Below the pieces are notes generated by a model, which worked only from the letters and a program-made list of their open reading frames with translations, was not told the origin of the DNA and ran no database searches. The position numbers and the translations under genes were made by a program. Shown here piece after piece: positions 8,214 to 63,090 of a stretch of DNA of 64,000 bases. Origin of the DNA: Eledone cirrhosa (lineage: Eukaryota); the NCBI GenBank assembly GCA_964016885.1, contig OZ024755.1, positions 24,552,001 through 24,616,000 of the forward strand, given 5' to 3'. Positions within the stretch are counted from its first letter, which is position 1, and every line of letters starts with the position of its first letter.

Positions 8214-8382
8214 TATTTAAGGTGGAAGGTAATATCCGTAGTGGTAGAGCACTCAGTCCATTGGACGAGTTAGGTAGAAGTGGTTACATAACAGTTAGGG
8301 TTAGGGTTAGGGAGCTGATGATCCGCTAAGGTGAAACAATTGTTCTCCGTATGGTGAACCAACTGTTGTGTAACCACTTCTA
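8214..8382 (-). mobile_element. (TA)n-embedded fold-back hammerhead element with (TTAGGG)3 at the junction
   Basis: 22-bp inverted arms 8275-8296 / 8361-8382; hammerhead 8311-8348; ACTC/GAGT hairpin 8251-8270; TA tracts on both sides. Confidence 0.75.
8311..8348 (+). ncRNA. Type I hammerhead ribozyme (complete core)
   Basis: GGAG-CTGATGA-TCCgctaaGGT-GAA-ACAATTGT-T-CTCC: stem I GGAG/CTCC, palindromic stem III, GUU cleavage triplet. Confidence 0.85.
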
Positions 8383-8420
8383 TATATATATATATATATA
8401 TATATATATATATATATATA

Positions 8421-8760
8421 TATAAGAACAAAAGATGGTTAAAAGAGTTCCATGTATTTTATTATGCGCATTTCAAAAACAAATATCATCATGCAATAAT
8501 ATTTGTGTTTTCATCAGATAAAACAGGAAGACATGATATGAAGATTAAAAAACACTTGTGGATAGTGCAGTTTTAAATCAACAATATTATTGCATGATGA
8601 TATTTGTTTTTGAAATACGCATAATAAAATACATGGAACTCTTTTAACCATCTTTTGTTCTTATATATTATATATACTCCAGTCCTACAAACTGTAGAGT
8701 GCTTCTTATCCGATATCTGCATTGCTTTATTGTACTACAATAAAACTCACCTCCTACACA
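8421..8760 (+). mobile_element. (TA)n-embedded fold-back hammerhead element, family A
   Basis: ~80-bp inverted arms (8421-8502 / 8583-8664); hammerhead core on minus strand (CTGATGA at 8511-8517); same family as 62666-63090. Confidence 0.85.
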
Positions 8761-9049
8761 CATATATATATATATATATATATATATATATATGCACGTA
8801 TATATTTATATATGCATATAAGCTAATAATGTGCCTGTGTGTACAATAATTATAATTACTACCACCATCATCAATCATCAACAACCACAGCCAACTTTCC
8901 CAATACATCGTTGCCAATCAAAACCACCGACATCATCATCCATGCCTTCTCATTAAAAACATCAGCCGACATTAAACTGATCAACTTAACACAAACCTTA
9001 ATTGAATTTTCAACTAAACTAAACGTCTAACCTAGCAATTTCTTTCTTT

Positions 9050-9800
9050 TATTATCTACTCCATATTTCATACTCTATATTCTATACTCTATATTTTATA
9101 GTTTGTATATTTAATACTCCATAGTTTGTATATTTAATGCTCCATAATTTTATACTTTGTGTTTTATACTCTATATTTCATACTTTTTTTTTTATTTATA
9201 TGCATATTTATATGCATATTTTTTTAAATATTTATACTCTATATTTCATACTTTTATATTTTATACTCTATATTTATACTTTAGATTTTATACTTTATCT
9301 ACTCTATATTTTATACTCTGTATTTTTTGCTCTATATTTTACATTTCTTTAGATTTTATATTGTATATTTTATACTATGTATTTTATAGTTTGTACTCTA
9401 TAATTATACTTTAGATTTTATACTTTGTCTACTCTATATTTTACACAATATTTTTACTTTCAATTTTGTATTCTAGATTTTGTGCTCTATCTTTTACTCA
9501 ATATTTTATATTACATATTTTATACTCTATATTCTGTACTTTATATTTTTTTTCCTCAATAACTTCATATTATATATCTTTTATTTCATACTCTATATTT
9601 TATACCTCATATTTTATACTTCATATTTTATTCTTTATATTTTATGGTGTATACGTTATACTCTTTATTTATACTCTATATTTTATACTCTATATTTTAT
9701 CTAGTATCTTTTATTCTCTATATTTTATTCTATATAATTTATATTCCATTTTCAATATTCAATATTTTTAAAGTTATATTTTATATTATATATTATATCC
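9050..9800. repeat. Degenerate AT-rich minisatellite (TATTTTATACTCTA-like)
   Basis: Direct reading. Confidence 0.8.
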
Positions 9801-9838
9801 AAGGTGTTCATCCAAAGAATCCGTCTGCCCAAAGTAAC

Positions 9839-10045
9839 CTGCTGCTGCTGCTGCTGCTGCTGCTGCTGCTACTACTACTACTACTACTACTACTACTACT
9901 ACTACTATTGCTGCTGTTGCTGCTGCTGTTGCTGCTGCTACTACTACTGCTGGTGGTGGTGGTGGTGGTGCTGCTACTACTACTACTACTACTACTACTA
10001 CTACTACTACTACTACTACTACTACTACTACTACTACTACTGTTA
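9839..10045. repeat. Compound (CTG)n/(CTA)n/(GGT)n microsatellite
   Basis: Direct reading. Confidence 0.95.
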
Positions 10046-59795: not shown

Positions 59796-60289
59796 GTAAC
59801 GGTGGTCGTGGTGATAGTTGTGGTGATGGTGGTAGTTTTGGCGGTGGTTGTGACGGTTGTGGTTGAAGTGACGGTGGTGGTGGTGGTTGTGGCGGCGGCG
59901 TTGGTGGTGGGATGACGGTGGAGGTGATGGTGGTATTGGTTGTTTGTTATTATTTTGATGGAACATTTTTTCATCTTGCATTTCTGTCATTTGGCAAGGA
60001 CATGTTAATTAATGCTACACCCATGCCTGTGCATTTGCATGCCTGACTGCAGAATGTTGCAGCTATAATGCACTGAAGCCCAAATCCCAGGACACCACTT
60101 CCGCTCTCAAGCTATGTCAGCCGTTTTACCCTTTCATTGCCGTATTTTTAATGAAAGACACTCTATAATTTGCAAATCACTTTGAAAATACTCAAGAATT
60201 TGAAGTGATTTAGTAATATGTATTCTCAGTTTTAAGCCGGTACTTGGACCATACCTTAACAAATGTTTCAACATAATTTTGACGCAACA

Positions 60290-60648
60290 ATTGGCAGTAT
60301 CGGTAGAGGGTCGGACGCCTTGCTTTGACGCATAGTGTTACGGCCCTTCCCATTCTGAGTTCAAATCCCGCCGAGGTTAATTTTACCTTTCATCCTTACG
60401 GGGTCGATAAAATAAAGTACCAGTAATGTACTGAGTAATTGCTGGCATTGTGCCAATAGTAGAAACAATTATTAGTTAAATACGGCGGTACTTTACATTC
60501 TGAGTTGAAATCCCGCCGAGGTTAGCTTTGCCTTTCATCCTTACGAGGTCGATAAAACAAAGTACCAGTAATGCACTGGGGTCGATTTGATTGACTTTAC
60601 CTTCCCCTTCAAATTGCTGGCCATGTGCTTAAAATAGAAACCATTATT
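60290..60648 (+). mobile_element. Two tandem main-family SINEs (short variant, then truncated long variant)
   Basis: ATTAGTTAAATA duplicated around the second copy. Confidence 0.85.
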
Positions 60649-61674
60649 AGTTAAATAGGTTTTCAGTGGTTTGGTATCAATAGGATTAAAGGATTACATG
60701 TCTTGATCCCATATCCTGGACAATCTACGGAAGTTCGTGTCCAATATCATTCAGACTGTAAAAGAAAAGGACCTATTTCGTAGGCTATTGTTTAAGGACG
60801 GGCAGGGACAGGGAATTTATTTCATCGTTTCTCCTGTGGAGGGTCTGTGGAAGTGTCTATTGTCAAAATATGACTTATTCGAGAATCCACCTCGGAGAAT
60901 TGGGAACAGCATGACTGGTTCGTACGGTGTTGAGAAGAATTGCCGAGAGAGTTCTGACTAACCAGTTCGAAGGATGAATGAATGATGAAAGGTGTATATT
61001 ATCCCTAGATCTCCGAGAAAACATATATGGAAGGATGGGCGAAACTTGGCAGTAAGTTGGAATATCGAAGAAAGACAAAAAAGAAAACAAAATAAAACCA
61101 ATATTTAGTTGGATGGAATCAGAGATCGCACCACTTAACGTGACTGAGGAAGGTGGTCGTAGAAATTATCTTGCAATCAAAACGACGAGACGATATATAA
61201 GACGTCACACATTCAAACCTATGACAAAGAATCATCTATGCAGTCCTTCGGTCTCCTCTTAACTACAGCCAACTATGCTTGTGACAATAGAGTCACCTAA
61301 TTTCGCTCACAAGGCTTGGTTGAACCAGAGGCTACGGTAAAGACAATTCTTTTCTATTCAGCCTTAACTGTCTATGTGTACACACATAGATAGACATAGC
61401 GTTTGTCAATAAACAAAACAGAAATCAAACAAATAGGATGGCAACGCACTACAAAGACACCAACGCCAATGGCAACAACGACACAAACAACGCCAACAAT
61501 GACATCAAGAACAATAACAACGGCAACACCAGTAACATAACAACGACACCAACAATGACGCCAACAACACATCAATGACAACAACAGAACAATGACAACA
61601 ACACCAACAATCTCCCCAATAACAACACCAGCAACATAACAATGATAACAACAGCAACAACACTTTTAGTTGAA

Positions 61675-62250
61675 AAGGGTTTCGGGGTCGTGTTCAAAAG
61701 TAATGGAAGGCAGGCGGCTGAATTAAGTGCAAGAATTGCTAGAGATGGTGCAGGGATGTGCCAGCTTCAACATTCGGTAATCAAAAGAAGGGAGGTAGGT
61801 GTAAAAGACTAACTCGATATCTTCAATCCAGTACCTGTGGTCATGAATCTTAGGTAATCATCGAAAAAACACGATCGCGAATACAAGCGATCGAAATGGA
61901 ATTCGTTCGAAGGGTCATTGGAATAACGTTACACGATAGAGTGAGTAGCTCGGAGATCAGAGAGTCGCTCCAGGTAGGGCCTCTACTTTTCGGAATTGAG
62001 GGATCATAGTTCGAATACTACGGACGCCTGGCTAGAATGTCTCAGGACAGAATCGCTGGACAAATTTTATGAGCAAATTCAATTGGCAGGAAATCCAGGG
62101 GTAGACTCCGAGCAAGATAGTTTGATAACAACCATGAGCTCGGCTGGTCTCAAGCCGGATATATTGGCGACGATTTCTTCTGACAGGACCTACTGGAAGG
62201 AGTGCTTGAGGACTCTGACCCCACGACATCCCAGGGATATGTGGGTGAAG
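61675..62250 (+). mobile_element. RTE LINE 3' fragment (Expander-like)
   Basis: TRSRIQAIEMEFVRRVIGITLHDRVSSSEIRESLQV...DRTYWKECLRTLTPR. Confidence 0.8.
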
Positions 62251-62665
62251 AATAAGACCAGCACTTCCATCTCTTTCCATCCTCTCCATCCTTCCACAGA
62301 CACAATCACATTCACACATATATATATATAAACATAACCATATATACACACATACACACACATAATATATATATATATATGTGTGTGCGTGTGTGTGCTT
62401 ATATGTATATAAATCTGTGTGTATATATGTATGTGTGTGAGTGTGTGTGTGTGTTGTCTATTCGTGGAAATGTCCAGTCATCTGGGCGTTATTCAGTTCC
62501 ATCTCAATGATTGATTGGTGAATTCCTACATATATTTTGTCATCTATTCTTCCAATATTCAATGTACATGGAAATACTGCGAAATATGAACGTAGACTCA
62601 TATTGCAGTCTGGTTGGAATGCCTGTATATATATATATATATATATATATATATATATATATATA

Positions 62666-63090
62666 ATGTAGGAGGTGAGTTTTATTGTAGTACAACAAAG
62701 CAATGCAGATATCGGATAAGAAGCACTCTACAGTTTGTAGAACTGGAGTATAAATAATAAATAAGATCAAAAGATGGTTAAAAGAGTTCCATGTATTTTA
62801 TTATGCGCATTTCAAAAACAAATATCATCATGCAATAACATTTGCGTTTTCGTCAGATAAAATAGGGAGACATGATATGAAGATTAAAACACACTTGTGA
62901 ATAGTGCAGTTTTAAATCAACATATGTTGATTTAAAACTGCACTATTCACAAGTGTGTTTTAATCTTCATATCATGTCTCCCTATTTTATCTGACGAAAA
63001 CGCAAATGTTATTGCATGATGGTATTTGTTTTTGAAATGCGCATAATAAAATACATGAAACTCTTTTAACCATCTTTTGATCTTATTTAT
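62666..63090 (-). mobile_element. (TA)n-embedded family A element with a 334-bp palindrome
   Basis: Palindrome 62757-63090 centred on CATATG (2 mismatches seen); tail 62756-62666 matches 8665-8757. Confidence 0.9.
62983..63053 (+). ncRNA. Type I hammerhead ribozyme (mirror copy on minus strand 62794-62864)
   Basis: TATTTTAT-CTGACGA-AAACgCAAAT...ATTTGTTTTT-GAA-ATGCGCAT-A-ATAAAATA; stem I extends through CATG/CATG beyond a bulge. Confidence 0.88.

Follow-up and report, generated by a model that had tools for sequence, protein, structure and literature searches.

The bulged ACTC/GAGT hairpins found in a 64,000-nt stretch of Eledone cirrhosa DNA (contig OZ024755.1; the window) are tail hairpins of Penelope-like retrotransposons (PLEs), and the motif is real. 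Hydra-type PLEs often carried it twice in tandem, as HP1 and HP2. Element copies ended just before one hairpin on each side, so the pair likely tells the reverse transcriptase (RT) where to start. The tandem hairpins are considered putative RNA docking sites for the RT-endonuclease, which probably set two RT starts and, by their spacing, the length of the tail.

Hydra-clade elements carrying the hairpins

The original prediction placed the hairpins in otherwise unrelated families, which was true of their DNA only. Six window families were linked to Hydra-clade ORFs (the Hydra placement was made by features, and the protein tree comprised Hydra-like rows only, with no reference PLE clades); at the protein level they form one clade and are therefore not unrelated. 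Family C had a single ORF of 718 aa, with the RT followed by a C-terminal GIY-YIG endonuclease, in a tandem unit of 3,542 bp, and the 580-aa partial ORF of family A had the same order. The CxCX5C linker and the CxxC and CxH motifs, with no CCHH, were present in families A, C, and J. DKT was found in families B, C, and I, and RWR (a variant of RWK) in families B, C, H, and I; homologues had RWK or RWR, plus DKT/DKS. Hammerhead (HHR) cores of the form CUGAnGA..GAAA were recognized by sequence in families A, B, D, E, H, and J, and the examined copy of family C had an altered core. Copy ends abutted (TA)n in 137 of 162 cases, and in 43 of 49 cases in fresh DNA.

Hydra PLEs are generally under ~3 kb (Craig et al. 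2021, PMC8557442), whereas the family C unit was 3.5 kb; its long 3' UTR accounts for the excess. Naiad identity was rejected because the endonuclease was C-terminal and a hammerhead core was present. No parent ORF was found for families D, E, F, and G. The family A protein matched no Pfam family at E ≤ 1, and the viral contigs searched yielded no relative. Homodimer prediction for residues 1–480 of the family C protein, run without an alignment, gave a score of 0.00, which weighs neither way.

The features of the window are listed in Table 1. Inverted arms were found for all but 3 of the 13 predicted instances (19565, 13348, and 30133). The motif had been reported absent from the families at 5063 and 18170, and this held for the GAGY side. 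The tail of the non-Hydra 5063 family has ACTC with a GTGT/ACAC hairpin (ACUC-GUGU/ACAC in RNA) at the same offset. Non-Hydra families in this genome have tails without the present motif.

Table 1. Hairpins, arms, and fold-backs in the window (positions counted from its first letter)
Feature	Position	Strand	Remarks
Further candidate hairpin, absent from the original prediction	4900..4938	-	6-bp upper stem
Motif-negative fold-back	5063..5349	+	family linked to non-Hydra PLE endonuclease ORF
HP1, family H	8251..8270	-	1-nt bulge in both family hairpins; fold-back ~8217-8382
Family A inverted arm	8425..8583	-	outer end at (TA)n, taken as start site S1
Type I hammerhead-like motif in family A inverted arm	8457..8523	-	CTGATGA..GAAA, palindromic stem III
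Family A forward arm and tail	8583..8758	+	ends at S2
HP1, family A (Hydra-clade PLE)	8676..8700	+	string confirmed
HP1-type hairpin, family F	13348..13373	+	3-nt bulge; tail end ~13450; no arm or parent found
Motif-negative fold-back	18170..18616	-	related copies linked to non-Hydra C-terminal-endonuclease PLE
HP1, diverged family C copy	19565..19588	+	no inverted arm found alongside
HP1, family B	25630..25649	+	HHR core at 25532; tail end ~25714
Degenerate hairpin	30133..30158	+	single copy in data examined; no arm or TA junction
HP1, family C	31608..31631	+	in fold-back 31487-31679
HP1, family D	33365..33384	+	register corrected; C>T at one position in this copy
HP1, family I	34146..34226	-	61-nt loop; fold-back ~34097-34646
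HP1, diverged D-like copy (ATTC)	38449..38468	+	HHR core at 38373; arm divergent
HP1, family J	38814..38882	-	long loop; fold-back ~38719-39024; family linked to Hydra-type endonuclease ORF
HP1, family C	51685..51708	+	in fold-back 51550-51756
HP1, family A second copy	62725..62749	-	HHR core from 62856; arm end ~63097; tail end ~62666

Form and occurrence of the motif

All 13 predicted strings were present at their coordinates. Eleven started with ACTC as claimed, and those at 38449 and 33358 started with ATTC and TCTC. The parse of 33358–33384 as TACACT/AGTGTA was off register; copies of the family read ACTC-TAC-loop-GTA-TT-GAGT, and the homologous hairpin in the window is at 33365–33384 (ACTT..). 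The instance at 30133–30158, graded weak from the start, was the weakest case. The bulged ACTC/GAGT stem was correctly identified, but the general motif is RCUC/GAGY and paired, with the form RCUC-[Y..R upper stem]-U(U/C/A) bulge-GAGY-RC. The GCUC/GAGC variant occurred elsewhere, and the loops spanned 2 to over 100 nt.

With a stem of only 4 bp, the pattern could have been picked by eye from chance patterns, and many 4-mers yield equally many hairpins in this microsatellite-rich window; ACTC ranked 17th by rate. A strict descriptor (upper stem ≥3 bp, loop ≤15) gave 8 matches in the window, against 0.84 ± 1.0 (maximum 4) in 100 local dinucleotide shuffles; with loops of up to 70 nt there were 12 matches against 4.0. 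In 1.34 Mb of blindly chosen genome, the refined descriptor gave 73 matches, against 1 in reversed sequence. The motif was common to 56 of 73 Hydra families from other sources and was kept among elements whose proteins share ~40% identity. At these other-source loci, 49 matches lay in 11.8 kb of sense leader and 2 in the antisense, while the ORFs held 1+1 matches in 106 kb. Chance origin is already refuted by the other-source matches, the pairing counts, and the fresh-genome counts, and the successful prediction of HP2 (below) also argues against it; its probability is close to nil.

Among 60 foreign families with a hammerhead core, 19 had no hairpin within 260 nt. The copy ends before the hairpin site in many of these families, though not provably in all. 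Searches of 12 loci with Rfam covariance models (E ≤ 0.05) returned only hammerhead and miRNA-like palindrome matches, none over the hairpin, and the best 150 of 325 matches from the window scan were only miRNA-like and similar palindromes. The motif had not been recognized as a described one, and no description was found in Rfam or in the literature searched; an earlier mention may exist in older PLE papers, Repbase notes, or supplementary figures. Stem III of the Hydra hammerhead is often ACTC-N-GAGT (supplement of PMC8557442). Because the present hairpins lie 70–110 nt downstream of that hammerhead's core, they are distinct from stem III.

Covariation and folding

Covariation was assessed by anchor-based pairing counts and by counts on the RT tree. 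With anchors only, 104 hairpins from the 56 families paired best with a 2-nt bulge. Upper pair 1 was paired in 98% (C-G 68, U-A 30), pair 2 in 72% (40% when shuffled), and pair 3 in 66% (40% when shuffled). On the RT tree of 45 rows, in which the hairpins were preselected for two upper pairs and the host states were set by hand, pair 1 needed 7 swaps (3 forced by strong branches) and pair 2 needed 14. The upper pairs thus covary by both counts. The lower stem was near-invariant (G-C in 99 of 104) and therefore adds little covariation. The A-U variant may be a single event, because the host RTs form one clade.

G-U pairs outnumbered A-C pairs by 19 to 9 at pairs 1–3, and the counts were 5 and 10 at pair 4, which weakly favors the sense strand. 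Folding of the hairpin segments was weak: in 7 of 12 window segments the fold of lowest energy was the named hairpin, z-scores ranged from +0.3 to −2.5, and a different helix won in families C (31608) and E.

The second hairpin and the leader

HP2, which was absent from the original prediction, was predicted first and then searched for past the tail end. In five families, read-through copies carried it immediately beyond the end of the tail. For families C, B, and I, the searches gave 408, 199, and 445 matches, each with 0 in the control, and 8 of 8 family I loci were complete. In a family B read-through copy, HP2 begins 8 nt past the tail end. HP2 was also found in family A (locus L007) and family H (locus L324); for family H the first pattern gave 0 matches and the second gave 9, of which 6 were examined and 1 was a true read-through. 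For family D, the searches returned 1 and 3 matches, with no true read-through among them, and no HP2 was found in families F and G.

On the sense strand, the hairpins come after the ORF and before the next ATG, and the leader order is hammerhead, HP1, HP2, ATG. HP2 is ~15–70 nt before the ATG, and the positions upstream of the hairpins are AT-rich. These hairpins could control translation, the promoter, or packaging, with junctions lying nearby only through AT-richness. Such a reading is very improbable: although the pLTR is AT-rich throughout, 130 of 137 copy ends fell in two 16-nt windows of references 188–293 nt long, with one end per site. A second role in translation, promoter, or packaging control, beside priming, is possible.

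Insertion junctions

The same 130 of 137 (TA)n junctions were within 14 nt 5' of HP1 or HP2 (−14..+1), with modes at −6 to −8 relative to the hairpin. Out of sample, 40 of 43 junctions in fresh DNA fell within this range. Three outcomes had been named as refuting the prediction, namely no significant covariation, equal frequency in shuffled or non-element sequence, and no fixed spacing to insertion junctions; none of them occurred. The distance from motif to arm start, given earlier as 5–30 nt, was tighter, at 0–10 nt in seven motif-bearing fold-backs of the window, where arm-end positions are blurred by TA microhomology. TAT/ATA (UAU/AUA in RNA) was present at −9..−4 in 83% of 65 hairpins, compared with 12–37% further upstream. 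Tail length was ~70–170 nt in this genome, and tail-only insertions were rare (1 of 185 S2-ended segments, five families).

The fold-back end pairs were 93 S1-S2, 2 S2-S2, and 0 S1-S1, with 31 unclassified, some of these pairs deriving from loci selected for having a tail. In fresh DNA, 17 of 17 fold-backs took one end from each site. These pairs bear on a reading in which the RNA is processed a few nt upstream of the hairpins, by a host nuclease or by self-cleavage, leaving 3' ends from which RT starts as in LINEs. It would yield the same junction geometry, and a motif that is conserved and sequence-specific might serve as a nuclease site. However, if two cleaved RNAs were used independently, about half of the pairs should be same-site, and such pairs made up only 2 of the 95 classified and 0 of the 17 in fresh DNA. 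No Rfam ribozyme matched the hairpin, and the Poseidon element PAc uses unprocessed RNA with internal starts (PMC11167929). Processing is thus quite improbable.

The junctions could also arise at the DNA level, with the cDNA copied past the hairpins and the GIY-YIG endonuclease recognizing the folded or duplex motif and trimming at the AT-rich site before it. We regard this as unlikely. Resolution of an intermediate by the endonuclease was suggested as the origin of the tail (Craig et al. 2021, PMC8557442), recognition by the Drosophila Penelope endonuclease reportedly required the tail, with PAc cutting at ATT (Frangieh 2024, PMC11167929), and the G-U strand evidence is weak. On the other side, loops of such variable length, together with an asymmetric bulge, are ill-suited to a duplex site, and the loop range is more easily reconciled with a folded strand than with a DNA palindrome of fixed form. 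In PAc, RT begins inside the RNA at each boundary of the tail (PMC11167929), and the conserved UAU/AUA is complementary to the (TA)n primer.

Proposed mechanism of insertion

The original prediction of a cis RNA element that positions priming fits the sense-strand location, the covariation, the junction spacing, and the primer-complementary UAU/AUA; the RT presumably binds it. According to the preferred reading, in which the tandem hairpins are RNA docking sites, the protein would nick both strands of the (TA)n target, and each target 3' end would pair by 2–3 nt with the UAU/AUA before a hairpin. Each hairpin would dock the RT-endonuclease, and RT would start there. The cDNA from S2 would carry HP1 and give the forward arm and tail; the cDNA from S1 would carry neither hairpin and give the inverted arm. 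Joining of the two cDNAs at their truncated ends would form the fold-back, with a tail equal to the HP1-HP2 spacing. Since a solo insertion is without HP2, the full signal would come only from tandem or read-through copies.

More speculatively, two protein subunits may act on one RNA. Such a twin-hairpin platform, on which two telomerase-related RT subunits use one RNA to prime the two ends of a double-strand break simultaneously, is proposed tentatively, with rather less than even confidence. If true, it would explain the tail, the fold-back, and the need for a tandem or circular template by one mechanism. The same geometry may serve other PLE clades with motifs of their own, for example the ACUC-GUGU/ACAC hairpin of the non-Hydra 5063 family.

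The origin of the one-sided tail and inverted arms of PLEs is a long-standing question. To our knowledge, in vitro activity has been achieved for a single PLE, in work that named no conserved RNA signal. A motif of ~20 nt that many families conserve, and that is linked to the two insertion ends almost to the base, makes the question open to direct mutational testing. The motif further offers a rule for annotating the ends of elements and for spotting non-autonomous partners, and a minimal RNA handle with which to study the structure of the telomerase sister group and to program insertion starts.

Comparison with known systems

Small RNA structures are recognized by the RT to select template and start in stringent LINE/SINE pairs and the R2 3' UTR. 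In those systems the structure is upstream of the one start, which is at the RNA 3' end, and it is copied. The hairpins here would instead be downstream of two starts inside the RNA, and solo insertions receive no copy of HP2. Bulged or boundary hairpins also set RT start or stop in hepatitis B epsilon and in telomerase template-boundary hairpins, and PLE RTs are sister to TERT. In the present case the bulge does not serve protein priming and a repeat template is lacking; the likeness drawn is one of function.

The Hydra clade has a single ORF with RT then GIY-YIG, the CxCX5C linker, no CCHH, a hammerhead, a (TA)n target, an inverted truncated copy, and a tail of 30–40 nt (Craig et al. 2021, PMC8557442). 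These are shared with the present elements, the hammerhead as sequence cores in six families, except for the tail length, the tails here being longer. The main text of that paper uses neither "hairpin" nor "stem-loop", and the hammerhead is the sole structure annotated there. By eye, the hairpin was clear in 3 of its six published Hydra consensi and in a near-form in 2, and the sixth ends before the hairpin.

In vitro, the RT of Poseidon PAc starts at two internal RNA sites bounding the tail, and PAc nicks both strands of an AT-rich target (PMC11167929). The mechanism proposed here has these features, and a PAc dimer was predicted. PAc belongs to another PLE clade, and both of its starts are in a single AC-rich stem-loop of the ORF, with no conserved repeated motif described in the available text of that paper; here, the starts would lie 5' of two conserved leader hairpins.

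Occurrence of the hairpin in the window and the host genome

The host genome was a 3.0-Gb, AT-rich animal genome whose repeats appear to be of a cephalopod kind, and short fold-back insertions (inverted arm, forward arm and tail) sitting in (TA)n runs were abundant in the window. All 13 hairpin strings of the original prediction were present; the hairpin at 33358 had been given in the wrong register (the homologous hairpin is 33365–33384), no inverted arm was found beside 3 of the 13, and the one at 30133, rated weak before, was a weak case here too. The strict descriptor produced 8 matches in the window versus 0.84 in shuffled sequence. 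The refined descriptor produced 10 matches in the window alone (reversed sequence, 0) and 73 in 1.34 Mb of blindly picked genome (reversed, 1). The coordinates of further features are listed in the table.

Further features of the window and of fetched loci
Feature	Position	Remark
Family A copies	8425, 62667	~1,840 first-look candidates genome-wide, 40 scored
Hairpin outside the original list	4900–4938 (minus strand)	6-bp upper stem; a (TA)n run precedes it by ~90 nt
Tails without the RCUC/GAGY motif	5063–5349; L120:6490–6850; L062 near 7540–7570; L103, L135, L235	ACTC-GTGT-loop-ACAC 7–8 nt past the inverted-arm end; no GAGY partner
SINE-like repeat	7523–7654, 12459–12871, 36447–36633, 44862–45051, 48222–48645, 60290–60580	~190 nt, abundant; ~15 window copies
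Fragments presumed to resemble RTE-type LINE protein C-termini	14609–15010, 23286–23663, 61978–62331	
Tandem arrays	10967–11655, 28263–28811, 30817–31125, 58209–59171	Units of 101, 40, 45 and 23 nt

Element families and the second hairpin

In a family A locus (L028), the sequence ran unbroken from a GIY-YIG ORF through a 1.2-kb 3' UTR into the tail, which placed the hairpin on the coding strand. The complete unit of family C was 3,542 bp and encoded 718 aa, with RWR, DKT, CxCX5C, CxxC and CxH present and CCHH absent; according to PMC8557442, such marks are those of the Hydra clade of Penelope-like elements (PLEs). Locus L259 (G000:C1:91.474-91.484 Mb) carried these 3,542-bp units head-to-tail with open 718-aa ORFs, and the hammerhead core was altered in the copy examined (CTTGAGA..GAAA). 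The ORFs linked to families B, H, I, and J matched the Hydra profile; the 5063 and 18170 families, fold-backs without the hairpin, had linked ORFs that failed to match it. A search for parent elements of families D, E, F, and G found none. In a quick tree, the seven host RTs fell in a single branch among 77 Hydra-like rows, so the families with linked Hydra ORFs could not be called unrelated at the protein level; the host elements are new families within a known clade.

In another family A locus (L007), a second hairpin (HP2) followed 7 nt past the tail end, and then the ORF start. HP2 was predicted from this locus for the remaining families and afterwards searched, giving 408 matches for family C and 199 for family B (reversed controls, 0), and 445 for family I with its 5' half as the query (control, 0); the complete hairpin was found in all 8 family I loci examined, with a loop of ~60–105 nt. 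Family H gave 9 matches, of which 6 were examined and 1 was a read-through locus; HP2 of family D was searched for and not found. The HP1-HP2 spacing in five host references was 68–138 nt, and the base of the lower stem in the host was A-U in HP1 and G-C in HP2. Loops of ~50–105 nt occurred in both hairpins of family I and in HP2 of family H (L263–L270, L324), and family H had a 1-nt bulge in HP1 and HP2 alike (L324). These shared long loops in I and the shared bulge in H suggest concerted evolution of HP1 and HP2 within a family.

Insertion junctions

Junctions were scored at 162 copy ends of five families, using only loci unselected for that family: 137 adjoined (TA)n, 24 did not, and 1 read through. 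The copy end fell at -14 to +1 of a hairpin in 130 of the 137 (60 at HP1 and 70 at HP2), the modal positions being -6 to -8. In 600 kb fetched later, with the references fixed beforehand, 40 of 43 ends at (TA)n lay in this range, and 6 further ends had no TA. A fixed spacing between motif and junction, as originally proposed, was found in both samples. Among 126 fold-back end pairs, from a sample in which some loci were chosen for carrying the tail, 93 joined the putative start site before HP1 (S1) to that before HP2 (S2), 2 were S2-S2, none was S1-S1, and 31 had one end unclassified; all 17 out-of-sample pairs were S1-S2. TAT/ATA occurred at -9 to -4 in 83% of 65 hairpins of foreign loci, taken from other-source collections, versus 12–37% in windows farther upstream.

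Tail-only insertions, with hairpin and tail between two (TA)n runs (L257, L258, L255, L328, L122), were uncommon, making up 1 of 185 S2-ended segments across five families. In three foreign loci (the L165 leader, L150, L173), a TA run stood immediately 5' of HP2, inside or at the leader start, as though new copies could also insert at the start site.

Conservation and covariation

From metagenome and genome collections, 92 related loci were taken, forming 73 families at 80% identity; their hosts are presumably animals whose DNA lies within those assemblies. Some contigs with Hydra PLE ORFs (L215–L229) had been deposited under bacterial MAG or symbiont names, probably through contamination of those assemblies by host DNA. 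The foreign motif had the form GCUC-Y..R-UY/UA-GAGC-ACU, mostly 68–104 nt downstream of the hammerhead core. Over 11.8 kb of leader, the sense strand had 49 occurrences and the antisense strand 2; 106 kb of ORF had 1+1. Eleven foreign families had both hairpins within 260 nt of the core, 55–83 nt apart; in 19 of 60 foreign families with a core, no hairpin was seen in the 260-nt span. In six published Hydra consensi, compared by eye, the hairpin was clear in three and in a near-form in two, and one stopped short of it.

For covariation, 104 hairpins of 56 families were chosen solely by flanking anchors, and their best pairing had a 2-nt bulge. Upper pair 1 was formed in 98% (C-G 68, U-A 30, U-G 3), and pairs 2, 3, and 4 in 72, 66, and 47%, versus 40, 40, and 35% in shuffles. 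Because shuffles take no account of kinship, pair states were mapped onto a 45-row RT tree using hairpins preselected as having two upper pairs; pair 1 required 7 swaps, of which 3 were unavoidable given the strong branches; for pair 2 the number was 14. Covariation of the upper stem, as in the original prediction, was observed. The lower stem was almost invariant, which points to sequence-specific recognition. The hairpin motif is real and deeply conserved.

Tails without the motif

The tails without the motif shared the offset from the inverted-arm end with HP1, but GAGY was missing. The 5063 family was linked to a non-Hydra PLE ORF, and the ACTC-GTGT-loop-ACAC pattern may be an analogous signal of another clade; by itself it was weakly enriched (11 versus 6). 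Another fold-back family, whose tail starts with AGTAA.. (L130, L067, L074, L004, L306, L310), had two preferred ends, and the RCUC/GAGY motif was absent from it.

Proposed mechanism and comparison with known systems

The proposed cis RNA element that positions priming fits the architecture, the covariation, the junction and pairing rules, and the primer-complementary triplet. Judged from these sequence patterns, the hairpins are quite likely docking sites that set the RT starts. The Hydra protein would dock onto both hairpins, the nicked (TA)n ends would each pair with the TAT/ATA triplet ahead of a hairpin, and two cDNAs would extend in opposite orientation and be joined where truncated, the tail length being set by the HP1-HP2 spacing. 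HP2 was missing from solo insertions, so it must act on the template or a longer intermediate, and the full donors would be tandem or read-through copies only; a circular monomer made by the hammerhead is a speculative alternative donor. Against docking, folding was weak (of 12 segments, 7 had the named hairpin as their structure of lowest energy), G-U pairs gave a weak strand bias, and non-Hydra families of the host carry tails without the motif.

No description of the hairpin was found in full-text searches of openly readable papers; term searches in the accessible parts of PMC8557442, bioRxiv 10.64898/2026.07.22.740005, PMC13282606 and PMC5737381 yielded no such description, and Rfam gave no match. 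The PLE tail itself is already known, and so is this kind of motif, an RNA structure that positions RT, while the twin hairpin signal and the rule of one end from each appear to be new. In PAc of Poseidon, both strands of AT-rich DNA are nicked and RT begins at two internal RNA sites bounding the tail, as described in PMC11167929; a further point against docking is that this precedent comes from a clade other than that of the Hydra elements studied here.
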